From a virus (Duplodnaviria; Caudoviricetes): 53,705 nucleotides of DNA. Shown in pieces: positions 7,339 to 53,584 of this stretch. The DNA is taken from positions 1-53,705 of the IMG/VR virus record IMGVR_UViG_3300032116_014300; one strand, 5' to 3'. The position numbers and the translations under genes are program-made. The stretch's first letter is position 1; each line of letters opens with the position of its first letter. The notes beneath the pieces are model-generated. The model had not been told where the DNA came from. It saw nothing but the letters and a program-made list of their open reading frames with translations, and did no database searches.

Positions 7339-7357
7339 ATTAGTAAGAAAAAGGAAG

Positions 7358-7431
7358 TCCGCGTTCTAGGAGTTGAACCTAGTGCCTTCTGTGTATCAGA
7401 CAGACGTGCAAACCACTTACACTTAACGCGG
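7358..7431 (-). tRNA. tRNA-Ile(GAU)
   Basis: Cloverleaf; loop CTGATAC. Confidence 0.88.
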
Positions 7432-8662: not shown

Positions 8663-8734
8663 AGCGTGTGGTGGGAGTCGAACCCACGTCTCTAGCTTGG
8701 AAGGCTAGGATAATAGCCGTTATATGACACACGC
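8663..8734 (-). tRNA. tRNA-Gly(UCC)
   Basis: Loop CTTCCAA; U73. Confidence 0.92.
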
Positions 8735-8739
8735 AACAA

Positions 8740-8814
8740 TGGTCCTTGAGGGACTTGAACCCCCGAATCGGCTGATTATGAGTCAGCTGCTTTGACCAAC
8801 TTAGCTAAAGGACC
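8740..8814 (-). tRNA. tRNA(CAU), probably Ile2 (lysidine type); elongator Met not excluded
   Basis: Loop CTCATAA; GGTCCTT acceptor resembles Ile2; no initiator features. Confidence 0.85.
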
Positions 8815-9251
8815 GAATTATAAGAATTGATTTGTTTTAATGTTGCATATTTCCTTCGCAGTTCAACATTACGAGAATCTGTTTTTGGAAATTTTTTGCT
8901 ACCACCTTTATATGTTTCGGTTTGACTGTGACAATTTGGACATAATAACCTAAGATTTTCTGGATAGTTATTGTCTGGATTTCCGTCAACGTGATCAACT
9001 TGAAGTGTTATAGGTTGATTATTCCAATTTGATAATTTACAAACGACACATTCGTATCCAAAATCTTCTATCAAAAACTTTCTAATAGCAGGACGATGTT
9101 TTAATTTACCTTGAACATATAATTCTCTATTAGTTTTTTTATTACTTACCACACGAGCATCTGCCGAACATTTTAAACTACAATATTTTCCAGTTTGTTG
9201 TGAAGGTGAGTATGTAAAATCAACACCACAATACATGCAATTACTTTTCAT
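8805..9251 (-). CDS. HNH homing endonuclease
   Basis: CxxC zinc motifs; LQVDHVDGNPDNNYPENLRLLCPNCH. Confidence 0.92.
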   Translation of the reverse strand: MKSNCMYCGVDFTYSPSQQTGKYCSLKCSADARVVSNKKTNRELYVQGKLKHRPAIRKFLIEDFGYECVVCKLSNWNNQPITLQVDHVDGNPDNNYPENLRLLCPNCHSQTETYKGGSKKFPKTDSRNVELRRKYATLKQINSYNSVL

Positions 9252-9310
9252 AATAAAATTGGTTAGAGTACGACCATCATACTATAAGTAGTCTAACTCT
9301 AACAAAAAAG

Positions 9311-9385
9311 TCCGCCCCACTGGACTTGAACCAGTATATCTTTCGTGTATAAGACGAATGCTGTCACCAATTTAGCTAGAGGCGG
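9311..9385 (-). tRNA. tRNA-Ile(UAU)
   Basis: Stem TTCGT/ACGAA, loop CTTATAC. Confidence 0.88.
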
Positions 9386-9392
9386 GTATTCA

Positions 9393-9466
9393 TGCTTCCA
9401 CTAGGATTCGAACCTAGACCTAAAAGATTAAAAGTCTCTTGTGCTAACCGTTGACACTATGGAAGC
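9393..9466 (-). tRNA. tRNA-Lys(UUU)
   Basis: Loop CTTTTAA; canonical T-loop. Confidence 0.9.
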
Positions 9467-9476
9467 AGTACATCAG

Positions 9477-33344: not shown

Positions 33345-33869
33345 ATGAAAAAACTTATTTTGGTACTTGTAATTTTAATTACGTCTGTGTATATTGTTGA
33401 TAGACTTCCAAATGTTACGGTTACACCGATTCCAAAGTCTAAACCTACGCCGGTTGAAATGTTTATGGATCGCATTGCGTCAATTGAGACACCGGGCGGA
33501 ACCCATAGAACAGTCAATCAGTTCGGTATGATGGGACGTTATCAGTTTAGTCCATCTACCGTTCGGGTTTTAGGATTTCGAGTAACGCAACATCAGTTTT
33601 TAAACAACCGACAGATCCAAGATACCGTGATGTTACGATATATGAAGGTCAATCATCGTGAATTGTCATGGTATATTCGTCGGTATAGTGGAAAAGTAGT
33701 GAATGGGGTCAAAATTACCCGTGCAGGTATCCTTGCCGGAGCGCATTTTGCGGGAAGTGAGGGGGTAAAAGCATTTTTCCGTACCGGAAGTAACAGAACT
33801 GATGCAAATGGAACGTCGGTAGCAAAATATATGTCAAAATTTAGTAATTTCCACCTACCAGAGATCTAA
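33345..33869 (+). CDS. membrane-anchored lysozyme-fold protein
   Basis: N-terminal TM; IASIET..GRYQF; LAGAHFAG. Confidence 0.7.
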   Translation: MKKLILVLVILITSVYIVDRLPNVTVTPIPKSKPTPVEMFMDRIASIETPGGTHRTVNQFGMMGRYQFSPSTVRVLGFRVTQHQFLNNRQIQDTVMLRYMKVNHRELSWYIRRYSGKVVNGVKITRAGILAGAHFAGSEGVKAFFRTGSNRTDANGTSVAKYMSKFSNFHLPEI

Positions 33870-34141
33870 TGATAATCGTTATTACAATTTTAGGTATACT
33901 AAACATAGGGTTAGGGTATGCAACCTATAATCTACTGAAAAAATTAGAAATTTATGAAAAAAGTATAGAGGAATTCTATACTTCATTGTCTTTTGTACTC
34001 CATACGATGAGAACATTAGACGAAAAACAAATGTTTGAATCAGATGACGAAGTGGGGACGGTATTTAGGCAAATGTCCGACATACTGTTCACGCTTCGTC
34101 CAATAATTTATGGAAAGGAGCAAAATGAAGAAAAAGACTGA
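33869..34141 (+). CDS. small membrane protein
   Basis: TM; FESDDEVG. Confidence 0.75.
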   Translation: MIIVITILGILNIGLGYATYNLLKKLEIYEKSIEEFYTSLSFVLHTMRTLDEKQMFESDDEVGTVFRQMSDILFTLRPIIYGKEQNEEKD

Positions 34142-34889
34142 CCTAGAAATTCGTCGTGCCAAGCTGGGTAAGGTATATTTCACCCAAGATACGGAACGAG
34201 CAATTGTAGAATACAATAAATCTTCCGATCAAGAGGAAAGAGATCAAATATTTAGAGAACGAATACACGCACCAATTGATAAATTAGCAGAAAATATAAT
34301 TAATAGATTTAAATTTCCTTATATAGATGGAAATTTTGAAGATATTAAGAATCAGGTAGTATCATTTCTAGTACTTAATTTACACAAGTTTACGGAAGAT
34401 AAAGGTAAGGCATTTTCATATTTTTCTGTGGTAGCAAAAAACTATTTAGTATTACACAACAATAATTCGTATCGTGATGAATTGCGATCAACTTACATAG
34501 TAGATTCGTCAACCGACGAGTCGTATTTATTGGAGGAAGTACTAACAACAAAACCAGAAGTTGAATCTTCTCACAAAGATACTAGTGATTTTGTAGAATT
34601 GTTAATTCAATATTGGGATTTTAATTTAGATAGAATTTTTAGGAAAAAAAGAGACAAGGAAATAGCAAATGCTGTAATAGAATTAATGAAACGCGCAAAC
34701 ACAATAGAAAATTTCAATAAAAAAGCACTATACGTACTAATTCGTGAAATGACCAACAATAAAACGGTTCATATCACGAAAGTTATTAATAAGATGAAAG
34801 TACATGTTTTGGAACAAATGAAAGAATATCGCCGGTCAGGATATTTATCAGATCCATCCATGCTTTTTGTCTATAATCAAGAAAAATAA
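34125..34889 (+). CDS. putative phage late sigma factor (gp55-like)
   Basis: KGKAFSYFSVVAKN; AGGAG RBS; directly upstream of structural genes. Confidence 0.65.
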   Translation: MKKKTDLEIRRAKLGKVYFTQDTERAIVEYNKSSDQEERDQIFRERIHAPIDKLAENIINRFKFPYIDGNFEDIKNQVVSFLVLNLHKFTEDKGKAFSYFSVVAKNYLVLHNNNSYRDELRSTYIVDSSTDESYLLEEVLTTKPEVESSHKDTSDFVELLIQYWDFNLDRIFRKKRDKEIANAVIELMKRANTIENFNKKALYVLIREMTNNKTVHITKVINKMKVHVLEQMKEYRRSGYLSDPSMLFVYNQEK

Positions 34890-34928
34890 CTATTTATGAT
34901 ATAGACCTTCACTCTATAGAAATTGCTT

Positions 34929-35315
34929 ATGGCATTTGATACGGAAATTTTTGACGGAAAAACATTGGCTGATCTGTTCTCGGATATCTACAAAAATACA
35001 GATAAAAAACGAGAACAGATCAATCAATTTGTGGCAAGTTTTGTTAAACTAATCAAAACCCCAGAAGACGCAGCCGTCCTCGGACCAGTTATAAAAGATT
35101 TTTTGGATGTAAATGTTAAAAATGACGAACATTTGGTTAGACTTGCACAGATAGCACAACGATTGGTCATGGTATCCAGTAAAGGATCTTCGTCCGGCGA
35201 CATGTTGAGCGAGGAAGAAAAAATGCAACTGTTAAAAAATATAAAAAGTGATTTTGAAACGGTTATTGCAGAACAAGACGACTTAGAAAATACGATTCAT
35301 CGGATAAAACCGTAA
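34929..35315 (+). CDS. hypothetical helical protein
   Basis: VKNDEHLVRLAQIAQR; CTATTTAT upstream. Confidence 0.8.
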   Translation: MAFDTEIFDGKTLADLFSDIYKNTDKKREQINQFVASFVKLIKTPEDAAVLGPVIKDFLDVNVKNDEHLVRLAQIAQRLVMVSSKGSSSGDMLSEEEKMQLLKNIKSDFETVIAEQDDLENTIHRIKP

Positions 35316-35316
35316 T

Positions 35317-36867
35317 ATGGCATCTGGAGACAAGTGGGTTTATAGAGGAAGGCCTGGTGGAATGCTGGCTACGTCAGGAACAACTGATTCAGCCAGACCT
35401 ATAACAACACCCATACATGAAGCAATCGTTGAAGATGTAATATTAGATCATCTTCATCCAAAATATTCGTCGGACGGGTATAACGTAGGGATGATAAAAA
35501 TCAGAATATTTTCAGTAGATAATAGTAGAGATTCCGAGACACTGGATTGGGCTCAGCCGATTGATGCAACAATACAAGAACTTCCATTAATAGGTGAGTT
35601 GGTAATAGTACAACGAGTACTAGGAGACTATTTCTACAATAGAAAAGTTTATCTTGCACACAGAATACAAGAAAACGGTATGTTAAATCTATCAAAGCAA
35701 TTAGATAACAGACCGGCTAAACTTGGCAGAAAAATAACTGCTACACAAACTGAAATTCAAAAGGAAGACCACGAGTTTGGGCAGTATTTTAAGCCTGATA
35801 ATAGAGTACGACCACTCAAACATTTTGAGGGAGACGTTCTCATTCAAGGACGCATGGGACACTCAATCAGGTTTGGTTCAAGTCAGATGGATCCAAGTAG
35901 TAAAGGAATGGCACCCAACATAATATTACGGACTGGACAGGCAAAGGATGCAGAAACTAAAAATTGTACGACGGATAAAGTCTTTGGATTAACGTTAGAG
36001 GATATTAATAGAGATGCATCATCTTTGTGGATGACTTCGGATCAAACAGTTCCTTTTGAACCCATCACGTTGAATGCGGGATCATTTTACAGATCTATTT
36101 TAAATCCACCACAAAAGTTTGATAAAGCACAGATTATATTGAATTCTGATAGAATAATTTTGGATGCAAAGAAAACACATATCATGATGTTTTCAAATGA
36201 AGAAATATATTTGAATAGCTTTAAAAGAACGTCAATAGACGCGGATGAAAGCATCATATTAACAGCAAACTTAGACGTACAGATAAACACCAGTAGAAAT
36301 ATTGATAACGTTGCAGATGAAGATTTTACTGTAAAAGCCGGAAGTGATATATCTATGTTGGCTGGTGAAAAAATTTCTCTAGTGGGTAAAAAAATTCATT
36401 TGGGTGGAATACAAAATGATGCAGAACCCGTGGTTGGTGGAACAAGTTTATCTATATTTTTAGCCAGGTTAATACAAGCTATTATGGGACTAGGAATAAC
36501 ACCCCCGCAAATACCCACATACCAGTCGGCAGGATTATCTGGACCAACTATAAATATTCCGTCAGCAATAACTCCTGGCACTTCTGCATTTTTTCATGTA
36601 CAAACACCAACTGGACCAGGAGTATTGATGCCGCAGATAGTAACCGCGCTAACGGCACTACACACCGAGTTAGTGTCACCAAACCCAGGATCACAAAAAT
36701 CTTCACCGTTTTCTGGAGCACCATTTAATAGCAATGATGTGTTTATTGCAATGTCAAATCAAGACGTAACAACTGCAATTGTTAAAAATGAATTTGAAAA
36801 CGGAACACAAATTAAAACTGAAAACAATCAATGGCTGTTATCAGACAGCTACTATAAAGTAACCTAA
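35317..36867 (+). CDS. baseplate hub/spike protein (gp5/VgrG-like)
   Basis: PLIGELV OB-fold, EGDVLIQGRMGHSIRFGS, beta-repeat segment. Confidence 0.7.
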   Translation: MASGDKWVYRGRPGGMLATSGTTDSARPITTPIHEAIVEDVILDHLHPKYSSDGYNVGMIKIRIFSVDNSRDSETLDWAQPIDATIQELPLIGELVIVQRVLGDYFYNRKVYLAHRIQENGMLNLSKQLDNRPAKLGRKITATQTEIQKEDHEFGQYFKPDNRVRPLKHFEGDVLIQGRMGHSIRFGSSQMDPSSKGMAPNIILRTGQAKDAETKNCTTDKVFGLTLEDINRDASSLWMTSDQTVPFEPITLNAGSFYRSILNPPQKFDKAQIILNSDRIILDAKKTHIMMFSNEEIYLNSFKRTSIDADESIILTANLDVQINTSRNIDNVADEDFTVKAGSDISMLAGEKISLVGKKIHLGGIQNDAEPVVGGTSLSIFLARLIQAIMGLGITPPQIPTYQSAGLSGPTINIPSAITPGTSAFFHVQTPTGPGVLMPQIVTALTALHTELVSPNPGSQKSSPFSGAPFNSNDVFIAMSNQDVTTAIVKNEFENGTQIKTENNQWLLSDSYYKVT

Positions 36868-36868
36868 T

Positions 36869-37591
36869 ATGTCAGATCCAATAAAAGACGCAATTAATAC
36901 CGTACAAGCAAAGAATTCTGATGGTAGAAAACTATTTGATTTGGCAACCAATAAAATTTCCAATAATAATGTGGAAAAATTAAAAAAATTACCGATTACT
37001 AAAGATCCCGTATTAATAAAAAAAGAAAAAGAGGCGGAAGTTTTAAAAAAGAAAACGGAGGCAGAAGAACTTAAACTAAATGCCAAACAAATTTTAATTA
37101 ATGAAGGAAAAACAAAGTTAAAAGACTTCATAGTGGCATCTATTCCATTTCCGCCAAAATTACCATTTATTGATCCAAAAATAATTCAAGCGGTTGATAT
37201 AGCCAAGCAATTAAAAAAATTGGCAGGTGAAAAAAAAGAAACAAGTAAAAATAATCTGGAAAAGGGGAAAGAGACATATACATACCCACTAACTCCAGTA
37301 AAAAAAACAGAACCCACACCAGAACCGCCAAAAATTCCAGAAGCATCTCCCCCACCCCCGACAATTTCTACTAAAATGAAATATTTTATAGAAATAAATT
37401 CTAAATCAAACAAAGGTTTGTGGGCAGTGCTGATATATGATAATACTGATGGCAACCGAGATTTTCTGGATAGTAAATATTATTCAAAATCAAAATATTC
37501 AACGGAAAACGAAGTAAAAACAGAGGTAACTAACCTAATTAAATCTAACGGCCTAATAGGATTCCCACCCCAGCCGGATTTCACTTTTTGA
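36869..37591 (+). CDS. hypothetical protein, Lys/Pro-rich
   Basis: 240 aa ORF in structural operon. Confidence 0.7.
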   Translation: MSDPIKDAINTVQAKNSDGRKLFDLATNKISNNNVEKLKKLPITKDPVLIKKEKEAEVLKKKTEAEELKLNAKQILINEGKTKLKDFIVASIPFPPKLPFIDPKIIQAVDIAKQLKKLAGEKKETSKNNLEKGKETYTYPLTPVKKTEPTPEPPKIPEASPPPPTISTKMKYFIEINSKSNKGLWAVLIYDNTDGNRDFLDSKYYSKSKYSTENEVKTEVTNLIKSNGLIGFPPQPDFTF

Positions 37592-37621
37592 TAATAATAC
37601 TCATGGTTAAGGAGATTATAA

Positions 37622-37957
37622 ATGGATAAGCAATTATTAAAAGCATATATTCGTACAATTGTTGAAGAAGAAGTTGAACGAATTTTACCGAAAATGTTAG
37701 CAGAAGCAGTTAACGAAGTAAAACAATTGACAGAAATAAAAACGTCCGTAGCAGCTCCGATAAAAAAACCTTCGCTTGATAGAAAACGGTTTGCAGAGCT
37801 CATGGATATATCTTATGACGGCAACACGTTACGTGCGGCCACCAATAATATGACAGTACCGCTCCCAGAAAATACTCCTCATGATGCTGACCCAGAAGTA
37901 ATAAAAGCAGTTACAAAAGATTATTCTGCCATTATGAAAAAATTAGGGTTAAGTTGA
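37622..37957 (+). CDS. hypothetical protein
   Basis: AGGAG RBS; IRTIVEEEV..KDYSAIMK. Confidence 0.8.
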   Translation: MDKQLLKAYIRTIVEEEVERILPKMLAEAVNEVKQLTEIKTSVAAPIKKPSLDRKRFAELMDISYDGNTLRAATNNMTVPLPENTPHDADPEVIKAVTKDYSAIMKKLGLS

Positions 37958-37965
37958 GATAATAC

Positions 37966-38346
37966 ATGACTCAAGCGCTTGGAATAACCCTACCCATCAG
38001 AATAGGAAATACTGGCTATTTTGAGCAAGGATTTGATACTTTAACACAAGTTAAATCAAACTTTATAAATTTGATACTTACTAGAAAGGGGGAACGTGTA
38101 CATCAACCCGAATTTGGGTGTGGTATACACGATTATCTCTTTGAGCAATTGACGCCAGAAAATATTGAAGGTGCTCGGTTATCGGTTATAGATGCAGTAG
38201 AACGTTGGATGCCTTTCTTAGAATTGGTACAATTTGAGTTAGGTGCGGGACCAACTGAAATAGACAATAACACACTTCGTTTATATGTCGGGTACAGACT
38301 TAAAAAAAACCCAAACATCAGAGATACCATCATTCTGACGTTTTAG
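37966..38346 (+). CDS. baseplate wedge protein gp25-like
   Basis: LILTRKGERVHQPEFGC. Confidence 0.92.
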   Translation: MTQALGITLPIRIGNTGYFEQGFDTLTQVKSNFINLILTRKGERVHQPEFGCGIHDYLFEQLTPENIEGARLSVIDAVERWMPFLELVQFELGAGPTEIDNNTLRLYVGYRLKKNPNIRDTIILTF

Positions 38347-38356
38347 GAGATAATCA

Positions 38357-40342
38357 ATGGCGGTAAACCAATCAATTACACGAAAATTTACACCAAATTT
38401 TAAAGAAGTTAATTACTTAGCAAAAAATTTTTCTGAATTCCGTCAAAATTTGATTGAGTTTGCTAAATCATACTACCCTAATACTTATACGGATTTTAAT
38501 GAAGCATCTCCCGGCATGATGTTTATGGAAATGGCCGCATATGTAGGGGATGTACTATCATTTTATATTGATAATCAATTTAAAGAAAACTTATTATTGG
38601 TGGCGACGGAAAAACAAAACGTAATTCAGATTGCTCAAGCATTAGGTTATAAACCAAAATTAACTGCAGCTGCAACGGTTGAGGCGACTATTTTTCAAAT
38701 GGTACCTGCATTAGGATCTTTACGGCAATATGAACCCGATAAGCGATTTTTCTTAAAAGTACTGACTAATTCAAAATTTTCTACAGATACACCGCCTATA
38801 CAAAGTTTCCGATCCGTGGAAGATGTGGATTTTGCTGACCCAACGAATAGATCTATACGAATACTTTCTCGGGACATAAACAATGCACCCACCATGTATG
38901 TGGTTTCAAAAAAGATAAAATTGGTATCCGCTGATACAAAAGTTGCAACGTTTTCTTTTGGTTCTGCACAAAAATTTTCAAAAATAGAATTGAATGAACC
39001 AAATATCATAGGAATACAATCGGTGGTTGATTCGGATGGGTATACTTGGCATGAAGTAGACTATTTGGGGCAAGATTTATTATTAGAAGAACGTACAATA
39101 CAAGTTAGAGACGATGCGGGATATTTGTCTGAATCTACGTTAGAAACAGGCTCATTACCACCTGCTAAATTGGCAATTTTAAGAAGAAGACCACGTAGAT
39201 TTGCAACAAGAATCAATTCTTCCATGAAAATGGAACTTTGGTTTGGTTCCGGAACAGGAGAAATGGATAGTGATCTTGTTACACTAAACTCTACACAAAT
39301 TGCAAATTCAAAGTACAATCAAGTAATTGCAAATACTTCGTTGGATCCATCTGACTTTATATCAAGTGATACATTTGGAATGGCTCCTGCAAATACTACG
39401 TTAACTGTCACGTATCTTATTGGCGGCGGCGTTCAATCAAACGTTTCATCAAATACAATAAATAAAGTAGATTTACCGTTGGTGGCCAATACGATAACTG
39501 ACTACCAACCTGCGGAGAGAAATTTATTTTCTCAAATAGTTGCAAGTCTAGCAATTTTAAATGACGAACCTGCACGTGGTGGTGGAAACGCAGAAGATGT
39601 TGAAGAAATTCGTCAAAACGCTCTAGCATTTTTCAATGCACAAAATCGTGTAGTCACTGATAAAGATTACATGGTTAGATCCCTTGCAATGCCATCTAAA
39701 TTTGGACAAATCTCAAAAGTATTTGTTGTTCGTGACGAACAAATTAACGCAATCGGCGAACAAGACCCGTCCAATTTAGTAGTAAATAACGACCAAGACC
39801 CATACAATAATAGAATATATGTAAAAGATCCAGTGGCGCCAAATTCTATAAACTTATATGTTCTTGGTTATGATTCAACCGGTAAGTTGGCAACATTAAA
39901 TACACTGGTTAAGAAAAATCTTGTTAAGTATTTAGAACAATATAGAATATTGACGGATGACGTGAACATTCTCGATGCGTTTGTTGTTAATATAGGAGTA
40001 GAGTTTAATATAGTAGTATATAGAACCTATAATATGAACGATGTTGTTGCACGTTGTATAGATGCAATAAAAGAATTTTTTGATATTAAAAAGTGGCAAA
40101 TAAATCAACCCATAATAATGAATGATTTGCGATTGGTAATAGGTTCGGTGGACGGAGTACAAACAGTAGTTGATGTATTAATTACTAACAAGTATAAATT
40201 TAAAGACGGTCGTGATTATTTTGAATATAGGTATCCAATTGAAGAGGCAGTGGTCGATGATATTGTATACCCGTCATTAGACCCATGTATTTTTGAAGTC
40301 AGATACCCAGAAACAGATATTGTGGGTCACGCTCGTCAATAA
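38357..40342 (+). CDS. baseplate wedge protein gp6-like
   Basis: TDFNEASPGMMFMEMAAYVGDVLSFY, AQALGY, GGGNAE, QNRVVT. Confidence 0.9.
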   Translation: MAVNQSITRKFTPNFKEVNYLAKNFSEFRQNLIEFAKSYYPNTYTDFNEASPGMMFMEMAAYVGDVLSFYIDNQFKENLLLVATEKQNVIQIAQALGYKPKLTAAATVEATIFQMVPALGSLRQYEPDKRFFLKVLTNSKFSTDTPPIQSFRSVEDVDFADPTNRSIRILSRDINNAPTMYVVSKKIKLVSADTKVATFSFGSAQKFSKIELNEPNIIGIQSVVDSDGYTWHEVDYLGQDLLLEERTIQVRDDAGYLSESTLETGSLPPAKLAILRRRPRRFATRINSSMKMELWFGSGTGEMDSDLVTLNSTQIANSKYNQVIANTSLDPSDFISSDTFGMAPANTTLTVTYLIGGGVQSNVSSNTINKVDLPLVANTITDYQPAERNLFSQIVASLAILNDEPARGGGNAEDVEEIRQNALAFFNAQNRVVTDKDYMVRSLAMPSKFGQISKVFVVRDEQINAIGEQDPSNLVVNNDQDPYNNRIYVKDPVAPNSINLYVLGYDSTGKLATLNTLVKKNLVKYLEQYRILTDDVNILDAFVVNIGVEFNIVVYRTYNMNDVVARCIDAIKEFFDIKKWQINQPIIMNDLRLVIGSVDGVQTVVDVLITNKYKFKDGRDYFEYRYPIEEAVVDDIVYPSLDPCIFEVRYPETDIVGHARQ

Positions 40343-40354
40343 ATGAGATAAATT

Positions 40355-41395
40355 ATGAGAACTTTTTTACCTATATCTCAAGATGCAACAATATACCAGA
40401 GATATCCTGATAATAACACGGGTCTAGATGAAATTATAGAAGTCGGCAAAGTTATTAAACCATTGGACGGAGTGGGTAAGTATGCATCTGGCTCTGCACG
40501 GATAGTATTGAATATTGATATCCCCTCAGAAAACCAATATCCAACGAATTCCGTATATTATTTGAATCTTAGAATAGCAAATGCCAAAAACGTAACACGG
40601 TATCAACAACTTAACGTCTACCCAGTATCGCGTAGTTGGACGGAAGGAAGTGGATATTTTTATCAAGATGTAAAAAATATGCAAGACGGTGTTACTTGGA
40701 ACGTTGCATCTCCGATTGTTAGTTGGTCATTGTCTGGGAGTGATTATGTTACAACTCCATCTGCTTCATATACTTTTTCAAGGGTACCAATTGAAGATAT
40801 AAAAATTGATGTTACACAAATAATACGTCCCGTTGTATCGGGATCAAATGAATTTGCGTGGAACGGATTGATAGTAAAGTTCCCAGACACGGACGAACAA
40901 CTTACTACAAATACAGGAAACATTAAATTTTTTTCCTCAAATACCCACACGATATTTGCTCCCAAACTAGAAGTGTTATATAATAATCAAACATTTATTA
41001 CAGGTAGTTTAAAACCGATCTCAACGGGAAATATTTCTATCATACCAAAAAATTTGAAAACTGCATACACGGTAGGTGAAATAGATAAAGTGTATCTTGT
41101 CGTTAGAGATAAATTTCCTGATAAACGGTTTGATGAAGCGCAACGATACAAGACAAAATATTATTTACCATCATCATCACTTTACAGAATAAAAGATCAA
41201 GTATCTGGTATGACAATTCATGATTTTGATCAATATTCTACAATTAATTGTGATACGTCTGGATCGTACATACTATTGGATACTACGGGGTTTGACGTTG
41301 ATAGATACTATACAATAGACTTAAAAATTTCTTCGGGACAACAAGTGTGGTTTCCAGAATTTGATTACTCATTTAAAGTAGATAGAAATGGCTAA
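40355..41395 (+). CDS. virion structural protein (DNRLRE-like beta domain)
   Basis: QDATIY, SWTEGSG, PKLEV. Confidence 0.7.
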   Translation: MRTFLPISQDATIYQRYPDNNTGLDEIIEVGKVIKPLDGVGKYASGSARIVLNIDIPSENQYPTNSVYYLNLRIANAKNVTRYQQLNVYPVSRSWTEGSGYFYQDVKNMQDGVTWNVASPIVSWSLSGSDYVTTPSASYTFSRVPIEDIKIDVTQIIRPVVSGSNEFAWNGLIVKFPDTDEQLTTNTGNIKFFSSNTHTIFAPKLEVLYNNQTFITGSLKPISTGNISIIPKNLKTAYTVGEIDKVYLVVRDKFPDKRFDEAQRYKTKYYLPSSSLYRIKDQVSGMTIHDFDQYSTINCDTSGSYILLDTTGFDVDRYYTIDLKISSGQQVWFPEFDYSFKVDRNG

Positions 41396-41798
41396 TAATA
41401 TTTTAAATTCGTATATATCAAAAGTTTTAGTAGAACTAAATCGTAACAATGATGATGTTATTAAAGTATCAACTAACTATCTGTCACCGGAAGGCGACGA
41501 ATATGTGTTGGATAGACAAACTGTATCACCTATATTAATACAAACCACACAATCGTTACAAGAACTGCAACCTGAAGTATCTAATGTATATCCATTTAAA
41601 ATCGTCACTCCATTAGACTTTGATGGAAGTACTATAATTTTAAGTCCAAGCGTTGACACACAACCAACTGCATCACAAGGATATTACGTACCAATTTATT
41701 TTGAAAGGTACAATACAGAAGTAGTTCAGGCAATAAATACAGAATTCACAGAACTAATCTTGGTAGAGGAAACTGGATTAGAAGTGTTGGGTGAATAA
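41388..41798 (+). CDS. hypothetical structural protein
   Basis: Packed in structural operon. Confidence 0.75.
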   Translation: MANNILNSYISKVLVELNRNNDDVIKVSTNYLSPEGDEYVLDRQTVSPILIQTTQSLQELQPEVSNVYPFKIVTPLDFDGSTIILSPSVDTQPTASQGYYVPIYFERYNTEVVQAINTEFTELILVEETGLEVLGE

Positions 41799-41800
41799 TT

Positions 41801-42661
41801 ATGCCAAATCAAAATAATTTTAGAAGTGACGTAACAAATATACAGGATGTAAGATTTTCTGCTTCAAGAATTGTTAGAATTCCTGAAGAACTGATTTTAT
41901 TTGAAGAAGTTCCTGCCAGCTTTGCATTTGACGCGGACGATAATATAGAAATTCATTTTTATACAATTCCCGAAAATCAGTTACTACTGAGCACTGTTAT
42001 TAAAACGGCAGAAAATATAATAAAATCACACATTATATCGTATGCAGATGGTACTTATAAAAATTATATAAGAATAGATTTCACAAAACTATTTATTGAT
42101 AAAGAGTTAGTATTAATACCTGGTGATTATAAAATGACGTTGAACCTATTTTCCGATGAAATAGGTAGTTATGACACCAAAAAGTTAAATATTGATATAA
42201 TATCAGACTCACGTACAGAAGTACAGTTATCCTTTAATGACACTATAGATGATGTATATTTTAAACAAAATTCTTACTTATTAAAAGAATTTTTAGAAAA
42301 AGCATTTAATAAAACCGATGCAGTGGGGTTTGCACAAAAAGTATTTATTTCGGGAGTTGAATTGAATGATCCAACCGAAGGGATAAATGCAACCAACATA
42401 TTACAAAATCTTGAAGTGGGTGGGATACAAACTACGGAAGACACTGTAGATAGAATTGAACGTATTAATTTACGAGAAATTTTTGAGACGCAATTGAACG
42501 ATTTTGTACAAGATTTGTTTAAATATATTAGAGAAGAAATAGTTATTAAAGGAGATGATAGAATCCAGCAATATGAGTACCAAAAAGTTATAACTGATAT
42601 AGTTGAACAAAAAATAAAAAATTTACGACAAACCGTAGATTCTAGAATCGTGGTTAGTTAA
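41801..42661 (+). CDS. hypothetical structural protein
   Basis: ISDSRTEV; packed in operon. Confidence 0.8.
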   Translation: MPNQNNFRSDVTNIQDVRFSASRIVRIPEELILFEEVPASFAFDADDNIEIHFYTIPENQLLLSTVIKTAENIIKSHIISYADGTYKNYIRIDFTKLFIDKELVLIPGDYKMTLNLFSDEIGSYDTKKLNIDIISDSRTEVQLSFNDTIDDVYFKQNSYLLKEFLEKAFNKTDAVGFAQKVFISGVELNDPTEGINATNILQNLEVGGIQTTEDTVDRIERINLREIFETQLNDFVQDLFKYIREEIVIKGDDRIQQYEYQKVITDIVEQKIKNLRQTVDSRIVVS

Positions 42662-42682
42662 TTAACTGGACGGATATATAAC

Positions 42683-45496
42683 ATGGCAATTTTTCCATTT
42701 GGATTCAACGACGAACAATATATAAACTCACAAATTACGCCATCCGACGAGGACACACAGGTCGGTTCAGGAGCCGGTACTGGTATAGGTGGAGGAACGG
42801 GAATTCGTAGACCAATTCTTGACAATGAAGATACAACTAGTACTATAACTGACAGTACAGGAACCGGAACTGGTACTGGAACTGGTACTGGAACAGAAAC
42901 CGGAACTGGTACTGGAACAGGAACCGGCACTGGTACTGGAACAGGAACCGGAACCGGCACTGGTACTGGAACTGGTACTGGTACTGGAACAACCACGGTA
43001 AATAGAGGTTGTCAAGCAGATGATGAATGTCCACGGGGATTTTACTGTGATTTTACAACAACTACCGTAATTGGTGATGATTTAACTAACCAATACGGAT
43101 CATGTAAACAAACTCCGACTGAGGGTACTGGAACCGGCACTGGTACCGGAACCGGCACTGGTACCGGAACCGGCACTGGTACCGGAACCGGCACTGGCAG
43201 AACTGGTACTGGGGGAGAGGGAGAAAAAATTGCTTGTTGTGGCCCAATTACGGAATACAAATGTGTGCGAGGGTTTGCTGGTCCAGATTGTCCTCGTGGA
43301 AGTGGTGAATGTACACCAGGTGAAGACTGCGGTGCTCCTCCCAAATGTGATACCACAGTAAAAACAACAGCTTGTTCTAAAATATTAGGTGACGAATTTA
43401 GTGGAGTTGCGGTACAAACGATATCAATTGAAGGTAGTCCCGCAGGTTGCGTTGCAGCAGCAGCAAGTGATTGGAACACTGACGATTGTCAAAAAATAGA
43501 TACAAATACACCATGTAATACGGTTACCGAAACCGTGTCGTGTACAACCCTTATAAATGATGGTAAAACGTATTCTGGAAGTGCATCTAGAATAATATTA
43601 AAAACTATAAACGGACAACCAACACCTTCCGGGTGTACTATACCTGATACTTCCAGTGACTGGGACACTTCTGGCTGTAGAGTAGTGGCAACCGAGGAAT
43701 GCGAAACCACAACACAAACTATAGCTTGTACAAATATCGGAGCCAACTATGTTGCGGGAACGGCAACTAGAACCGTACTTAGGAAAATAGATGGAAACAA
43801 TACGCCTCGTGGGTGTAGTGCACCAACTGGTTTATCAAGTGACTGGGATGTTAGAAACTGTATAATAAAAGAAGATGACCCGCCCGACAATCGTCCACGA
43901 ATATGTGGCAGTACAACCAGAGTACCTCTTGAATCGTTGGCATTATACACCGAGTCAACGGACGCTGCGGGTGAGTGCCTGGTTAGACGACAATATAGAC
44001 TGTGTGGAACTTCAGAAAGTTCATTAGGCATTCCACCTGCCAACTTAGTACTTAGTAGTGATAATCTGGGTGCCTGTTACGGACCACCTCAACCACGATA
44101 TAGAATTTGTGGCTCTACAAATGAAATTGAAGGGACGCCACCAAGTTCTCTTGAAGAGGGACAGGATCAACGGGGCGTTTGTTATAGAACACCCATAACC
44201 CATCGTATCTGCGGAAATCCAGACGCGCAGAGTGGATATGCACCAGAAGGATACAGACAATCAACCGATCAATATGCAGGAACTTGTTATAGAGCACCTG
44301 AGTTTTGGCGACTGTGCGGAACAACGGAACGTCGAGAAGACCAAGTTCCATCTGGATATGAACAGTTCTCAGATAATTCTGGAGCTTGTTATGGTCCATA
44401 TTTTACTTATTGTAATTCTCCCGATATTAAAAATTTAGGAACAAGACCATCTGACGATAGATATGAGTTTGATACTCAACGATTCTGCTGGAAAGAAAAG
44501 GTTATAATTCCGCCACCAGAAGAAGTATGTGAATGTCATGTTGCATCTGGATATAACGGTACCGTAACGTATGTACCGTGTGGTGGAACGGTTCAACAAT
44601 ACACTACTATACAGCTTGTTGGTGTTGATGTTGGTTTTTGTGCAAGTGATAAATATGCAGTTCTTTCCAATGGTGGAACAGTAGTTAAAAACCTAAATAC
44701 AAATTGTAAAAATAAGCAATCAGTTTGTATAATAACACCGCCACCGGACCCAGAATATCGTATATGTGAAACTCGTGCAATAGTAAAGGGAACTCCGCCT
44801 GCAGACTTTGTTCAATCTACTGATAGATTTGAGGGAGTATGCTATAGACGTAACGTAATTGAAGAAAAAACATATCGTATATGTGGAGAACCTGCGTTAT
44901 TAAAAGGAACACCGCCTGCAGAATTAATTGAATCGCGAGATCAATATCCTGGCGTTTGTTATAAACCACGAGAAATTCCAATAACACATCGTATTTGTGG
45001 CGATCCACAGTTACGTAGTGGTGATCCACCAGAAAATTATGTACAAGATTCTGACCAATATGGCGTGTGTTTCAAGCCAGAACCAGAATGGCGTAGTTGT
45101 GTCGATGGTAAAGTATATAAGGGATTACCACCTGCTGAGTACAAGCAACTAGTATACCCAGGACCAGTCGGTGGAGTATGTTGGGAACCTGCAAGTATAG
45201 TCGGCTTTGAACCAAGTTTAGCAAATGCATTTAACTTTTTATACAAACGTGGTAGTGGAGATTATCCAACTGCTGTCCGAGCAACGGCAACTAACCCATC
45301 ATATGCAGCTTCATATAGGGTTACTATGAACACAAACAGTAAAATAAAACTAAATAATGGTGACGGTACTCTACAATTTTTACTACAACCGCGAAGTTCG
45401 TACGAATTTACAGTAAATGTTACTCCTGAATTATATGAACAACTTGGTGATGGATCTAGTAATCTATCACTTGACGTTGATATAACTGAATTATAA
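42683..45496 (+). CDS. Cys-rich multi-repeat protein with (GT)n linkers
   Basis: 937 aa; two GT tracts, three ~60 aa Cys repeats, ~10 RICG..G.PP..CY repeats. Confidence 0.85.
42856..42990 (+). repeat. hexanucleotide tandem repeat encoding (Gly-Thr)n
   Basis: GGNACN repeats with synonymous variation. Confidence 0.9.
43122..43213 (+). repeat. second (Gly-Thr)n tract with 18-nt unit GGAACCGGCACTGGTACC
   Basis: Near-perfect 18-mer tandem copies. Confidence 0.9.
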
Positions 45497-45497
45497 C

Positions 45498-46007
45498 ATG
45501 CCAATACGAAATTATGTTACGGGTGATGTTCCCTACTTAACTTCATATGAACCGTTTACGTTACCGAATGGCATAACGCAAGTGGACTTCATAAGTCAAA
45601 TGATTTCGTATAATTTACAACCGTTAAAAACTCCAACCGAAATAACATATTTTATTGGTGCAGAAAATTCTTATGTTACAACGTTAGAAATAAAAAATTT
45701 GACGGATAATGTAACATTGACTGGAACTATAACGTTTAACAAAGACGTATTTGTTATATACGACGAATTTAATAGATATATAGACGGAATAGATAGAGTA
45801 GAGTTTTCCTTAGAACCAGAAAAAATTGAATCATTTAAGATTGAAGTTAATAAAAAAATATTGAACAGTGTAATTTTAAATACACCACTTAATACGTTGA
45901 TTAATATCACTATCAAAAATGTTACGACAAACGGATTAACGCTCAAAAAAATAAATCAATCTTCTTTGGCAGAAAGCACGTTCCCACAAAATATAACCGT
46001 AAAATAA
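45498..46007 (+). CDS. hypothetical Ig-like structural protein
   Basis: Beta-rich; LEIKNLT, FSLEPEK. Confidence 0.7.
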   Translation: MPIRNYVTGDVPYLTSYEPFTLPNGITQVDFISQMISYNLQPLKTPTEITYFIGAENSYVTTLEIKNLTDNVTLTGTITFNKDVFVIYDEFNRYIDGIDRVEFSLEPEKIESFKIEVNKKILNSVILNTPLNTLINITIKNVTTNGLTLKKINQSSLAESTFPQNITVK

Positions 46008-46010
46008 ACA

Positions 46011-49000
46011 ATGTCAGAAAAGATAAATTTAAAAATTACATTTCCGATAAAAGTTCAAATTGTACCGATACAAAAACCCGTAGGATTGCGTGCTCCTATT
46101 AATGTACAAATAACTCCAACACCTACAGTAGAACAAATACTGGATGTTAATTATAACTTTACCATTAACACCGTACCAATTGAAGTTAATATATCCGAGC
46201 CATTAATAGTAACTGCATTTGATTTCTTAAACACCGCATTAAATACATACGTTGACGAAGATCGTACTCTAAAAACACTATTAAATTACGGCGAAGATCG
46301 TCAATCTGTGGTTTTAAATTATAGATATGGTCCGTTGGATATAGCGGGACTAAGAACAATTCAGTTAAAATTACTACAACCTGTTCCCTCTGATATAGCA
46401 CCTACAACGCCCGTATTTTTATCCAGAGAAGTTGCAAAGAGTACTATTGATAAAGTTAGAGTAAGATTTGCTCCTCCTATTGATACCACACCATACCTTC
46501 GTCCAAAAAATACAGCAGTAAACACTGACGTGGAATTAGGAAAAACGGTGCGAAACGTTACATTAAATCGTCTCGCACTAAAAACAGGATCGGTGGGATC
46601 TGACGACGTTTATAAAAACAAAACGTTTGAAGACGAAATATTTAGACAGTGGTACTCATACGATTTTAATTCATCTGAATTAAACATAGACTTTACTAAT
46701 TATAGTAATTTTATATTTTATGGATCTGCTGCAATGCGATTAGCGGCGTTCAGAGAAAAAATAATAAAGTTAGAAAGTATAGATAAAAATAGATTACAAT
46801 TTTTATCATCATCAACGTATACAAATCTTACCGCATCTGTCGGATATAATTTCGTTCAAGAAAAAACGGCAGAATACGCAAAGGAAAAAGAAAATGTAAT
46901 AAGATCGTTTGATAGATACGAACAGTATTTGTATTTCACACCATCCGGTTCTAATAGTGCATATAGTGCTTCTTTTGTATATGCGGACACGGGCACAGAG
47001 TATAATAATATTGGATACTGGCCCAAGACGGTATCAGGAAGTATACACTCAGTTTACAGTACAGAGGCGGTAAACTGGTATTCTACACAGAGTTTAATTG
47101 CCCAAAGATTTGATGAGTTTAATGAAAACAATTTAATCAATACTATACCAACGCACATACGTGAAGATGATAGTAATTCTGCATACATTACCTTTGTGTC
47201 AATGGTCGGACACTTTTTTGATCTCATTAAACCATATATTGACCACATGTCAGATGTGTGGAGTCGTAATTTAAATCCAAACACGGAATTATCAAAAGAT
47301 TTAATTAATGAAATTGTAGAATCCGTTGGATTTAAATTGCCTACGTTGTATTCTACATTTGATCTGACAAATAATATTTTGGGAACAAATGATCAAACTC
47401 CTCGTAGAGATTTGGTGGCAGAAATTTACAAACGACTGTTACACAACTTACCATTTTTTACCAAGGCGAAAGGAACAAAAACTGCATTACAAACATTCAT
47501 AAAATCATTTGGAATAACACCACAAATTTTTGATGTTAAAGAGATAGGAGCTCCTGTAACTAGTTCATATTATGTGTTTGATGAATTTACGCAAGGATTG
47601 GATTTTGACGAAACTAAAATAGCCTACGTTATTTTACCGTTCTATCTAGGTTCTAAAACATTACAGTTTAATTGTAGTGTTGCAAAAAGTAAACAAATGA
47701 CTGTTCTAGTGGGTGATAATAAATGGGCATTAAATGTCGTTCCGCATCCATCAAATAAAACGTTGGGACGATTTGAATTAGCATCCGGTAGTGCTCATAT
47801 ACCAATTTTAAGTAGTAGTTATCAAGAAATCTTCGGAGATGAATTACTTAATGTAGCAATTAAAGTAAATGCTGGATATGCAAGTTTGTATGTAACGCAA
47901 GTAGAAGGAGAAGACATACTACATACATCGGCAATGTCGGAGAACAGTGCATTTGCTTCTTTATGGAATACTACTTCTATTCTGTATTTTGGAGGAGGTA
48001 CATCAATCAGCGTTGGTAATTTTGATGGTACATTAGACGAAATGCGGTTATGGAGTGACGCATTGTCCGATGAAACTATTTTGAACACAGCGTTTGACCC
48101 AGGATCAAATGCAGGTGATACGTACGATGCTGCGTCAGATAAATTGTTGATACAACTTTCGTTTAACAAGTTAAATTCTGATCTACTTGTAGCATCTTCA
48201 TCCCTTGTAAACGAAAGTCCATACAAAGATAAAACTTTAAATAACATAGATACGGTTCTCACATATAACATATCCGAATCGGATTTTTCACGGTATAATC
48301 GTACGGTTAGACAGGAAATGATGAACGTAGGATCATCGGGTATATTGACAAGTAAAATTAAAGTAGCGCCACCACCGGTGTTTATAGACGCATCACAGGG
48401 AAACAGATTATACAGAACAAAAAGTATAGTTAAACCTGAACAGAAAAAACTACAACGTGGACGTAATAAGATTATACTAACTGCGTCCCCAACGGAAATA
48501 GTAAATCAAAATATTATTCGTAATTTTGGATTGGAAAATATTAATGCAGTATTGGGTTCTCCAACCACGTTGTACACTACATTCGAAAAATCATTACAGA
48601 CATTAAAGCAACATTATCAACAATATTATTATGTGAGTGTGGATCCAAATAAATTTATCAGAATTCTTTCCGAGTTTGGATCTATTTTGAATCAATCTAT
48701 TGATTATTTTATTCCATCAAAGGCAACTATACTAAGTGGAATAACAATAGAACAAAATATTCTTGAACAAGTAAAAATTCCACCTTTGAAAAATATCAAA
48801 GTTTATGGAAAAGATACTAGACGTACATTGAACGCCGCGGCCTCTCTTACGCAAAGTAGAGCAGACTATGGCGCTACATTTAATCTATCTCAGACCGTGG
48901 AGGCGACCAATGATGCTGATGCACTGGGTAATTTAAATTCAATAAATTCAAATATTCAAGATATCGGATTTATAGAAATTGGAGGTGGATACCTTAATAA

Positions 49001-50711: not shown

Positions 50712-50768
50712 TAAAACGTAGTAAACTATATATTTATATTAGACCTCTTCTATTTGGAGTAAAATTTT

Positions 50769-51407
50769 ATGGGATATTTAAATAAGGCAACGGTCACCGT
50801 TGACGCAATTTTGACAAAAAAGGGACGAGAATTGCTGGCGCGAGGACGTTCCGCGTTTAACATCACCCAATTTGCGGTCGCAGACGACGAAATTGATTAT
50901 GGACTATACGATCCAGCACATCCATTGGGAACAGAATATTACGGTTCAGCAATTGAAAACATGCCAATCGTAGAAGCATCTACCGACGAAACACAAAATC
51001 TTCGGTATAAACTAGTAACATTGACGAGAGGAACCAACCTGATTCCGACCATCCAAACAGGCATTTCTTCAATACAACTAACATTCAGCAATACACAAAA
51101 TCCAGTAACTACTATTACTCCAACAACAAGTCAAGGACTAAATGCGCTTCCATTCGGCTATACAGCAATTTTATATGATCGTGAAGCGGCAATTTTAACA
51201 AGTAATGGACTACCGGGAACTGCTACCGTGCCAACATTCTTGGGAGACTCGGTATCACAAAACGCAATTGTCGTTCGTGGTACGATTTTTACGATTTCAC
51301 CGAGAGATGTAAATTCAGTAACACAGACACAATTGGTAATTGTTGGAAATCAAACTGGTGCATCGGTAACGATTCCGGTAACAATCAATCCAGCCACCAT
51401 AATTTAA
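50769..51407 (+). CDS. virion structural protein
   Basis: DAILTKKGRELLA, FAVADDEIDY; GGAG RBS. Confidence 0.8.
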   Translation: MGYLNKATVTVDAILTKKGRELLARGRSAFNITQFAVADDEIDYGLYDPAHPLGTEYYGSAIENMPIVEASTDETQNLRYKLVTLTRGTNLIPTIQTGISSIQLTFSNTQNPVTTITPTTSQGLNALPFGYTAILYDREAAILTSNGLPGTATVPTFLGDSVSQNAIVVRGTIFTISPRDVNSVTQTQLVIVGNQTGASVTIPVTINPATII

Positions 51408-51426
51408 TACATAGGAAGAATATATT

Positions 51427-52614: not shown

Positions 52615-52647
52615 CGGAGAGTAAATAATAAGTGAACGTTTGGAAAT

Positions 52648-52690
52648 AATGTCCCCTATTTATATATAGAACGTATAAATAGGGGACATT
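52648..52690 (+). promoter_or_regulatory. 17-bp inverted repeat sequestering the endonuclease RBS
   Basis: AATGTCCCCTATTTATA / TATAAATAGGGGACATT, 3 nt before ATG. Confidence 0.75.
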
Positions 52691-52693
52691 ACT

Positions 52694-53584
52694 ATGACTA
52701 CACCTGAGCAAAAAGAACGTTATAAACTAAAAGCACGAGAAAAAAGAGCAAAATTACGTAAACAAACCGATTCTGATATAACTTGTAGACTATGTAATTT
52801 ATCAATAAATCCGAAAGGGATGTCTATACATGTGAAAAATGTACATACGTTAGAATTTACCGTATATTTAGATCAATATCTATCCGATTTTTCTGCGCTT
52901 GGTTGGATACAATGTTCCGTATGTAAAAAAATTACCAAAGGTACAACTTGTTCAAGAAAGTGCATGGGCGTATTATACAAAGAAACTTATAGTGGACGAG
53001 AACCGTGGAATAAAAATTTAACTAAAGAAACCAACGAAAGTTTACGACAAATGGGCCAATCCATAAGTAAACGCAACACAGGTAACCCAAAAATAATGGG
53101 AACAAACAATCCAGCCAAACGAACGGAAGTTCGTGAAAAAATTTCAAAAACACGAATAGAACGTGGTGTTGCAAAAGGTCACAACAATCCCATGTTCGGA
53201 AAAGCGCACACCGAAGAAGCATTGAGAAAAATTTTTGATAAACGTTCCATGACTAGACCGGAACAGCAACTCAAAGAAATTTTAGAAGAATTGCATATTA
53301 CTTATAAATCACAATTTTTTATTAACACGGGTGACCGCACTTTTTCGTACGACTTCTACCTACCAGATCATAATATTATCATTGAGGTTGATGGGGATTA
53401 TTGGCATGGCGGACCAGGAGTATCAAAATATTGGCATGGCGTAGAAGTCACCAAAGAAACGGATATTCTGAAAGATAGTGTTGCTCAAGAACGTGGATAT
53501 ACTATAATTCGTTTATGGGAAAGTCAACTAAATACTGACAAAAAACTAATTATTGATATACTTCAATCCGTACTACACACATGA
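52694..53584 (+). CDS. homing endonuclease (Zn finger, NUMOD3, DUF559/Vsr-like nuclease)
   Basis: PWNKNLTKET, NPMFGKAHTEE, YDFYLP..IIEVDGDYWH, IRLWE. Confidence 0.88.
   Translation: MTTPEQKERYKLKAREKRAKLRKQTDSDITCRLCNLSINPKGMSIHVKNVHTLEFTVYLDQYLSDFSALGWIQCSVCKKITKGTTCSRKCMGVLYKETYSGREPWNKNLTKETNESLRQMGQSISKRNTGNPKIMGTNNPAKRTEVREKISKTRIERGVAKGHNNPMFGKAHTEEALRKIFDKRSMTRPEQQLKEILEELHITYKSQFFINTGDRTFSYDFYLPDHNIIIEVDGDYWHGGPGVSKYWHGVEVTKETDILKDSVAQERGYTIIRLWESQLNTDKKLIIDILQSVLHT

Follow-up and report, generated by a model that had tools for sequence, protein, structure and literature searches.

Decoding of AUA by an isoleucine tRNA with the anticodon UAU has been described in Mycoplasma mobile, whose tRNA-Ile2(UAU) reads AUA without lysidine, whose tilS and tRNA-Ile(CAU) have been lost, and whose isoleucyl-tRNA synthetase (IleRS; R865) and ribosome are adapted (Taniguchi et al. 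2013, PMC3575796). According to the same source, a UAU tRNA is a poor substrate of the Escherichia coli IleRS except when W905 of the enzyme is replaced by Arg or Lys, the UAU anticodon also reads AUG on E. coli ribosomes, and Lactobacillus casei, L. plantarum, Cyanothece PCC 7424 and Ferrimonas balearica carry tRNA-Ile(TAT) as well as tilS, that is, a redundant decoding of AUA by lysidine-containing (LAU) and UAU anticodons. Textbooks and a 2021 review (PMC8007984) treat UAU as lost or "prohibited" in prokaryotes because of the risk of reading AUG, and the review describes phage tRNA sets as lacking the same genes. In phages, each of the five T4-like genomes with tRNAs in the table of Nolan et al. 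(2006, PMC1524935) has an Ile2-like CAU tRNA. The T4 gene order is tRNA-Ile, segB, tRNA-Arg; SegB recognises a site including a tRNA T-arm motif and forces the inheritance of the tRNA region (PMC2330249), and a statistical link between SegB and tRNAs is also reported, as is its ability to amplify them in the face of defences that cut tRNAs (PMC13096335). Here we describe a tRNA-Ile(UAU) gene lying next to an Ile2-like CAU tRNA gene, with an HNH endonuclease gene between them, in the IMG/VR virus record IMGVR_UViG_3300032116_014300. The stretch analysed, called the window below, is the whole record of this genome (53,705 bases, 39.4% G+C) and comes from an uncultured tailed phage of freshwater, of which it is a 53.7-kb part.

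Each part of the locus, namely the tRNA-Ile(UAU), the phage Ile2(CAU) and the homing-type nuclease in a tRNA cluster, is of a known kind, and the whole is not a new system. As in M. mobile, the UAU tRNA is a bacterial-type tRNA with an unmodified-type UAU anticodon; unlike the M. mobile tRNA, it is phage-borne, stands beside an Ile2(CAU) gene and depends on the IleRS and ribosome of its host. The four bacteria named above offer a similar redundancy of LAU and UAU, but theirs are cellular genomes, whereas in the window the two genes are fixed in tandem within a phage tRNA array. The CAU tRNA has the same marks at 4:69 and 5:68 as the T4 tRNA-Ile(CAU), whereas the T4-like phages tabulated in PMC1524935 have no UAU tRNA in that table. 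The nuclease gene resembles segB in being free-standing, placed between tRNA genes, missing from related phages and tied to tRNAs, but its product is an HNH and not a GIY-YIG protein and is SegB-like by position; a reading frame that ends inside the next tRNA is a trait of its family and a further difference from SegB. A cultured cyanomyovirus, Synechococcus phage S-CREM1 (OP535465.1), has an annotated tRNA-Ile with the anticodon TAT and a CAU tRNA about 1 kb upstream, but the two are not in tandem and no HNH gene lies between them; its UAU tRNA is only 78% like that of IMG/VR contig L024, the one with which it was compared. Considering all the evidence given below, we regard it as reasonably probable that the locus combines a two-route AUA module for late genes with a selfish HNH cassette inserted between the tRNAs.

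Read along the minus strand, the locus consists of tRNA-Lys(UUU), tRNA-Ile(UAU), a 58-nt leader, the HNH open reading frame (ORF), the CAU tRNA and tRNA-Gly(UCC), in succession. ARAGORN and Rfam agreed on the UAU tRNA (RF00005, 59.1 bits, E = 1.4e-10; gathering score 29), and the anticodon arm read by hand, TTCGT/CTTATAC/ACGAA, gave the anticodon UAU and C38. Its acceptor stem is CCGCCTC/GGGGCGG (C1:G72), with A73 and no encoded CCA. The UAU and GAU isoleucine tRNAs of the window have in common the CCGC start, C1:G72 and C38, a resemblance pointed out in an earlier note on this DNA and borne out here. The other elements observed in that note are also present at the positions it gave, and its interpretation is supported in part. 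The E. coli isoleucine identity set used to judge the tRNA body comprises A73, C4:G69 and an anticodon arm like that of tRNA-Ile(GAU); the UAU tRNA has A73 and C4:G69, and in the UAU tRNAs A38 is replaced by C38 or U38. When nine related UAU tRNAs were aligned, C4:G69 was kept in seven of them, the loop CUUAUAY was invariant, and 11 of the 19 predicted pairs were maintained through two-sided changes, showing a conservation beyond chance. The same lineage was also found in L025, L066, L102 and L139, and as two copies in L111.

A contig of public run X2, which may or may not be the source sample of the window, spanned 8689-9427 with zero differences, and none of the 40 differences listed from four runs (22 further differences lie beyond that list) fell in the UAU tRNA, showing that the anticodon is not an assembly slip; the CAT or GAT that the earlier note had named as the reading to be feared does not appear in that contig. 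The anticodon arm (G30 U31/CUUAUAY/A39 C40) agrees with the phage Ile(GAU) tRNAs, with which it shares GT/CTNATAY/AC, and differs from the CAU tRNAs; in L001 the UAU and GAU anticodon stems are identical (TCCGT/ACGGA). This likeness fits a descent of the UAU tRNA from an Ile(GAU)-type (Ile1-type) tRNA through a change of G34 to U. A duplication of the CAU neighbour was rejected as its source, because the anticodon arm matches the GAU and not the CAU tRNAs. An origin from an Ile(GAU)-like tRNA has also been proposed for the M. mobile UAU tRNA (Silva et al. 2006), and a Bacillus subtilis tilS suppressor arose by the same G34-to-U route (cited in PMC3575796).

At least 120 IMG/VR stretches held the UAU anticodon arm together with the T arm, and ARAGORN found 123 UAU tRNAs in 122 of the sequences examined, the window included. 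The UAU tRNA was often the sole tRNA of its contig or was paired with Arg(UCU), and the next downstream tRNA was a CAU tRNA for 17 of the 123. The best 80 loci holding relatives of the HNH gene, which were not chosen by anticodon, contained 12 UAU, 13 GAU and 31 CAU tRNAs among 606. When positions 7300-10100 were compared with the phage collection by megablast, the sole match was a tRNA-Leu (3% of the query, 49 records), and the UAU tRNA alone gave one weak match there. No functional study of a phage tRNA-Ile(UAU) was found in the literature searched, subscription journals lying outside the coverage.

The same UAU arm and T arm were frequent in bins of Patescibacteria (Candidate Phyla Radiation) and DPANN archaea (at least 120 stretches), in which UAU isoleucine tRNAs may be the rule. 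Other phage contigs bore UAU tRNAs of 91-95 nt with a long extra arm (L279, 4004-4094; L287, 3323-3417; L297, 1439-1529; L298, 2918-3008; L300, 4171-4263; L313, 4638-4732), the Ile isotype of which is doubtful.

The CAU tRNA (RF00005, 67 bits, E = 9.6e-13) lacks the initiator marks C1xA72, A11:U24 and G29-31:C39-41 and has G1:C72, U12:A23, the D-stem GCTA and the anticodon stem GCTGA/TCAGC. Its acceptor, GGUCCUU, provides U3:A70, C4:G69 and C5:G68, with A73; the isoleucine marks given by Silva et al. (2006) are a pair other than C3:G70 together with C4:G69 and C5:G68, and the L005 homologue has G3:C70, a pair that they list. Among E. coli genomes the CAU tRNA matched 5249 records, and 10 of 10 rows sampled across the ranking were annotated as tRNA-Ile; the K-12 match was 77% identical, with the anticodon CAT and the acceptor GGCCCTT, against GGTCCTT in the window. 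Compared with references from E. coli and T4 only, the window tRNA was 73% identical to E. coli Ile2, 59% to Met and 46% to fMet, and both in the window and in 7 of 7 tested UAU-adjacent CAU tRNAs of relatives (L358 left out) E. coli Ile2 (70-75%) was closer than Met (58-68%).

Other CAU tRNAs of the relatives behaved differently in the same comparison: L025 has two more, one Met-like and one initiator-like, that at 10347 of L025 was 71% identical to Met, and those at 7761 of L020 and 6805 of L139 were 70% and 79% identical to fMet. The second CAU tRNAs of L001 and L005 were ambiguous; that of L001 found nothing significant in E. coli (4 records at E >= 2), and its assignment as Met is weak (59% to Met, 58% to T4 Ile). 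The acceptor marks and the greater identity to Ile2 than to Met support the Ile2-like character proposed earlier, suggesting that the CAU tRNA next to tRNA-Ile(UAU) is probably of the Ile2 type and a substrate of TilS.

ATA made up 360 of the 1072 isoleucine codons in 67 crude ORF calls of the window. That it is common in the structural genes had been remarked by eye, and the counts agree: in the tail/baseplate block it represented 240 of 497 isoleucine codons (48%; 37.2 per 1000), against 106 of 548 (19%) elsewhere (Fisher p = 1.8e-23), being the commonest isoleucine codon in the late structural genes. This block is the likely client of the AUA decoders. Pfam scans found neither TilS nor IleRS in 40 ORFs of the window; PF01171 was matched in none of five records of relatives, including a 164-kb record rated 90% complete, and PF00133 had no match in the one record scanned for it, the 164-kb relative, which is without IleRS. 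Since no phage TilS family was found, the CAU route must rely on the TilS of the host. This route is not replaced: next to the UAU gene, the window and 8 of 8 relatives retain the Ile2(CAU) gene. The 164-kb relative bears UAU, Ile2-like CAU and initiator-like CAU tRNAs and no Ile(GAU), and the only isoleucine tRNAs that it supplies are the two AUA readers.

Some further observations were made on codon use. The tail-fibre-like genes at 40355-52614 (+) are poor in ATG (1 internal ATG in 936 codons in one of them and 0 in 394 in another), and ATG occurs 10.8 times per 1000 codons in the structural block against 24.1 elsewhere. A weak negative correlation (rho -0.38, p = 0.025, 34 genes), which would point to an avoidance of Met in ATA-rich genes, is confounded by G+C at third codon positions (GC3) and by protein type, and was not used. 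The CobS-like (AAA_5/CbbQ_C) gene and the large gene adjoining it, at 10560-13993 (-), have 0 ATA among 62 isoleucine codons and a GC3 of about 0.5, unlike the rest, which suggests either a recent gain from a cell or another timing of expression; ATA is wholly missing from the CobS/CobT-like genes. The best cultured match of the CobS-like protein, in Microcystis phage Mel-JY01 (53.5%), is too distant to name a host.

Collecting relatives through the neighbouring CobS-like AAA protein gave 22 loci, in three of which (L001, L005 and L020) Lys(UUU), Ile(UAU) and CAU follow one another as in the window. Altogether, the UAU-then-CAU tandem was found in eight related contigs, with spacers of 10 (L001), 3 (L005), 586 (L020), 44 (L025), 44 (L066), 13 (L102), 728 (L139) and 15 nt (L358), the spacer of the window being 495 nt; L025 and L066 look like one phage sampled twice. 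In six of the eight the pair is separated by 3-44 nt and no HNH gene is present, which answers the comparison with HNH-minus relatives proposed in the earlier note and makes the UAU-CAU pair ancestral; the HNH gene, in a piece of about 484 nt, was inserted later. When the window was aligned with L001, L005, L025, L066 and L102, its extra DNA fell exactly between the two tRNAs, and the HNH gene was missing from the same spacer of these five contigs and of L358, the presence/absence pattern of a homing gene. In L020 the UAU-CAU spacer has two small ORFs, and a 34%-identical HNH gene lies in the adjacent Lys-to-UAU spacer, while the locus with the 728-nt spacer in L139 gave no match to the HNH family.

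An HNH gene of this family was found near the UAU tRNA in only 2 of 121 other UAU loci (L020 and L080). Together with the six relatives that lack it, this indicates a sporadic late arrival and not a vehicle spreading the tRNA, which leaves the earlier proposal of spread by homing weakly supported. A metagenome scan for the HNH-less junction yielded eight matches, of which only L358 is a tRNA pair; the other seven have no tRNA and look like chance matches. In the leader, a run of T follows the tRNA; there are also an imperfect inverted repeat of 16 nt and a weak σ70-like site (TTGTTA-18-TATGAT, 9/12), the promoter and terminator scan giving weak consensus matches only.

The HNH ORF matched Pfam HNH_3 (PF13392; 27.6 bits, cut-off 24.8) and HNH (PF01844; 21.5 bits, cut-off 21.4) by small margins, and 22 PHROG families, 20 of them named HNH endonuclease (best 3.8e-28). 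No GIY-YIG domain was found, only HNH families matching in Pfam and PHROG. The translation has two CxxC pairs (CVVC and CPNC) and a DH...N...N...H core (DHVDGN...NLRLLCPNCH). The overlap with the 5'-end of the CAU tRNA, which had been noted, is exact: the final 10 nt of the ORF are the first 10 nt of the tRNA, and the TAG stop corresponds to tRNA bases 8-10 (U8-A9-G10).

At least 587 relatives of this protein are present in IMG/VR (best identity 54%), and the context of the best 80 was counted with 2.5-kb flanks. A tRNA was present in 80 of the 80 loci, at 100 nt or less in 57 and at 1000 nt or less in 78, the loci together holding the 606 tRNAs in 391 kb. Among the 57 HNH ORFs with a downstream tRNA on the same strand, 17 end inside the tRNA (five of these with TAG at tRNA bases 8-10, as in the window) and a further 20 stop at 20 nt or less from it. 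Thr is the most frequent among the many isotypes of the nearest tRNAs, and each of the three closest relatives (53%; L271, L272 and L289, identical in layout) follows a different tRNA-Ile(UAU) at a distance of 43-44 nt. The family is present in 254 GenBank phage records; Tequatrovirus PBM-1 has a homologue 6 nt before tRNA-Leu, and the best match (44.5%), in Synechococcus phage DSL-LC03, has no tRNA annotated nearby. The HNH family specialises in the spacers between phage tRNA genes. Because of this association and because the closest relatives lie directly 3' of another tRNA-Ile(UAU), a local co-conversion of flanking tRNA genes, such as has been shown for T4 SegB, is plausible. A second HNH gene of the window, at 27707-28234 (+), belongs to another family (HNH/HNH_5).

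Table 1. Position of the tRNA genes, the HNH gene and the ATA-rich block in the window.
Feature	Position	Strand	Basis or remark
tRNA-Lys(UUU)	9392..9467	-	ARAGORN; upstream neighbour of the UAU tRNA, kept in relatives
tRNA-Ile(UAU)	9310..9385	-	ARAGORN; Rfam RF00005, 59.1 bits
Leader of the inserted cassette, 58 nt	9252..9309	-	Not present in HNH-less relatives
Free-standing HNH endonuclease gene, 148 aa	8805..9251	-	ORF, Pfam, PHROG
tRNA with anticodon CAU, Ile2-like, probable lysidine substrate	8740..8814	-	ARAGORN; Rfam RF00005, 67 bits
tRNA-Gly(UCC)	8663..8732	-	Downstream neighbour of the CAU tRNA, likewise in L001 and L020
tRNA-Ile(GAU)	7357..7431	-	CCGC start, C1:G72 and C38 in common with the UAU tRNA
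Tail/baseplate gene block with heavy ATA use	33869..53584	+	Codon counts; baseplate wedge PHROGs at 38357-40342

In the reading that we favour, the UAU and Ile2-type CAU tRNAs would be an old conserved tandem, together decoding AUA for the late structural genes. The CAU tRNA would be converted to its lysidine form by the TilS of the host, and the UAU tRNA would pair with AUA directly, thus bypassing any limit in TilS capacity; given the heavy late demand for AUA, the simplest account is that of two routes, one relying on the host TilS and the other presumably not. The HNH gene would be a compact selfish cassette of about 484 nt that entered a spacer of about 10 nt between the tRNAs, with a leader of about 58 nt and a frame running into the next tRNA, U8-A9-G10 serving as its stop, and it probably homes by cutting HNH-less tRNA arrays, in the manner of T4 SegB. 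A wider reading, to which we give rather little credit, would see in the phage UAU tRNAs a widespread and unstudied lysidine-free reading of AUA in ordinary TilS-bearing hosts, whose IleRS and ribosomes had been held unfit for a UAU anticodon, together with the two-route module and with an HNH family that homes into tRNA spacers; as the stop codon of the nuclease lies in the next tRNA, RNase P, in processing the array transcript, would sever it from the rest of the nuclease mRNA and so keep the expression of the HNH protein low.

Several points weigh against the two-route module with its inserted cassette. For E. coli, both poor charging of UAU tRNAs and the reading of AUG are known (PMC3575796). 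The expression, isoleucine charging and modification of the UAU tRNA are presumed, the single RNA run examined being without cover on this tRNA; an identical 327-nt contig of that run (X18) over 8795-9121, that is, the 3' part of the HNH gene and 20 nt of the CAU tRNA, was not used as evidence, since DNA carry-over is possible. Two AUA decoders are redundant, and nothing in the data points to TilS as limiting. The Ile2 status of the CAU tRNA is derived from sequence rules and from likeness rather than from an isotype model, and its U3:A70 is absent from the pairs named by Silva et al. (2006). As for a recent mobility of the cassette, the four runs revealed no allele of this phage without the HNH gene (no contig bridges 8815-9309), and no near-identical copy of the HNH gene was found elsewhere (the best had 54% identity among the matches listed in IMG/VR).

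The CAU tRNA could instead be an elongator tRNA-Met, kept beside the UAU tRNA in order to out-compete it at AUG and limit Ile-for-Met errors. Competition by tRNA-Met can indeed lower the misreading of AUG by UAU (PMC3575796), ARAGORN found no other CAU tRNA in the window, and the position of a CAU tRNA directly downstream of 17 of the 123 UAU tRNAs would suit such a role. Most GenBank records also label the homologous phage tRNA as tRNA-Met, although a 76%-identical tRNA of Citrobacter phage Citrof4 is annotated as Ile2(CAT) and tRNA-Met is the default label of any CAT anticodon (Silva et al. 2006; Nolan et al. 2006, PMC1524935). The UAU-adjacent CAU tRNAs are without C3:G70 and have C4:G69 and C5:G68, or A3/G3, their identity to Ile2 exceeds that to Met, both in the window and in all seven relatives tested, and relatives have separate Met-like or initiator-like CAU tRNAs, all of which makes a methionine tRNA in this place an unlikely explanation.

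Two other explanations concern the UAU tRNA itself. Its main function, perhaps also that of C1:G72 and C38, could be the evasion of a host defence that cuts or depletes isoleucine tRNAs, codon supply being secondary; defences that cut tRNAs can be countered by phage tRNA genes, and these are amplified by SegB (PMC13096335), and both phage isoleucine tRNAs are unlike the E. coli type at 1:72 and 38. However, the sharp ATA bias of the late genes fits codon supply directly, and many phages have the UAU tRNA alone or with Arg(UCU), the classic rare-codon pair. We know of no defence targeting tRNA-Ile (no search aimed at one was made), and hold this explanation to be improbable. Still less probable in our judgement is the view that this tRNA does no decoding, being either an uncharged relic or a structured RNA with another role, such as a processing signal of the array. 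It would agree with the poor charging of UAU by an E. coli-type IleRS (PMC3575796), with the absence of cover on this tRNA in the one RNA run, and with the view of UAU as lost from prokaryotes and phage tRNA sets (PMC8007984). Against it, the loop is invariant while the stems covary in the nine aligned tRNAs, the arm occurs in at least 120 IMG/VR stretches, often as part of the sole tRNA of a contig, and UAU is as frequent as GAU (12 and 13 of 606 tRNAs) in the sample unselected by anticodon.

The two genes belong to a large array. ARAGORN detected 24 tRNAs and one transfer-messenger RNA (tmRNA) in the window, and Rfam added a tRNA-Gln(UUG) at 9733-9803, giving an array of 25 tRNAs plus the tmRNA, with every tRNA on the minus strand. 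In the tRNA-Gln(UUG) (49.4 bits; window copy missed by ARAGORN) the bases U1 and U72 are mismatched and the T loop, GGCAGTA, is unusual; the homologues of this tRNA in L001 and L020 were called by ARAGORN. Other tRNAs are also of uncommon structure: the 'Leu(CAA)' tRNA at 14489-14564 (-) has a variable loop of only 5 nt and hence is not of class II, the Thr(UGU) tRNA at 7932-8016 (-) has a variable region of 15 nt, and the Cys(GCA) tRNA at 21716-21799 (-) has a long variable arm. A tRNA-Ser(ACU) at 14397-14483 (-), with the loop CTACTAA and a long variable arm, is kept in L001, L005, L020, L025 and L287, and four such tRNAs were counted among the 606 of the HNH loci; an ANN anticodon in a split box, as this one, is called universally missing in the 2021 review (PMC8007984). 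Another ANN anticodon in a split box was found in S-CREM1, in which ARAGORN called a tRNA-His(AUG) (L351, 508-579) that is not annotated in GenBank.

Within the array, between tRNA-Thr and tRNA-Gly, there is a gene for a SET-domain protein (8267-8650, -; Pfam SET, 2.8e-09). The tmRNA (26346-26686, +; 128 bits), with the tag GNYNLALAA, is of one piece and lies 280 nt after a GreA/GreB-like gene (25584-26066, +); the more distant relatives L010, L012 and L013 have permuted tmRNAs. The window also encodes a protein with a PEP-CTERM sorting motif (4740-5684, -), a UvdE UV-endonuclease (30781-31680, +) and a protein of the GMP reductase/IMPDH family (32309-33337, +). Public runs holding the stretch are labelled as freshwater and fungus metagenomes.

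The value of the locus lies in the conserved UAU-CAU tandem, in the clear ATA-rich client genes and in the tRNA-spacer habit of the HNH family. The view that UAU has been lost is countered in three ways: UAU tRNAs are routine in the tRNA arrays of uncultured phages, one clade keeps such a tRNA beside a lysidine-type tRNA, and they go together with late genes in which half of the isoleucines are encoded by ATA. A cultured pair in which this can be tested exists, S-CREM1 on Synechococcus CB0101. The association of the HNH family with tRNA spacers is the HNH counterpart of that of SegB with tRNAs, and the frame ending inside the next tRNA is a recurrent layout, which suggests how such nucleases get inserted and are held in check. 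If UAU tRNAs of this kind are charged and accurate in normal hosts, the rules derived from the IleRS and ribosome of M. mobile would not be the whole story.

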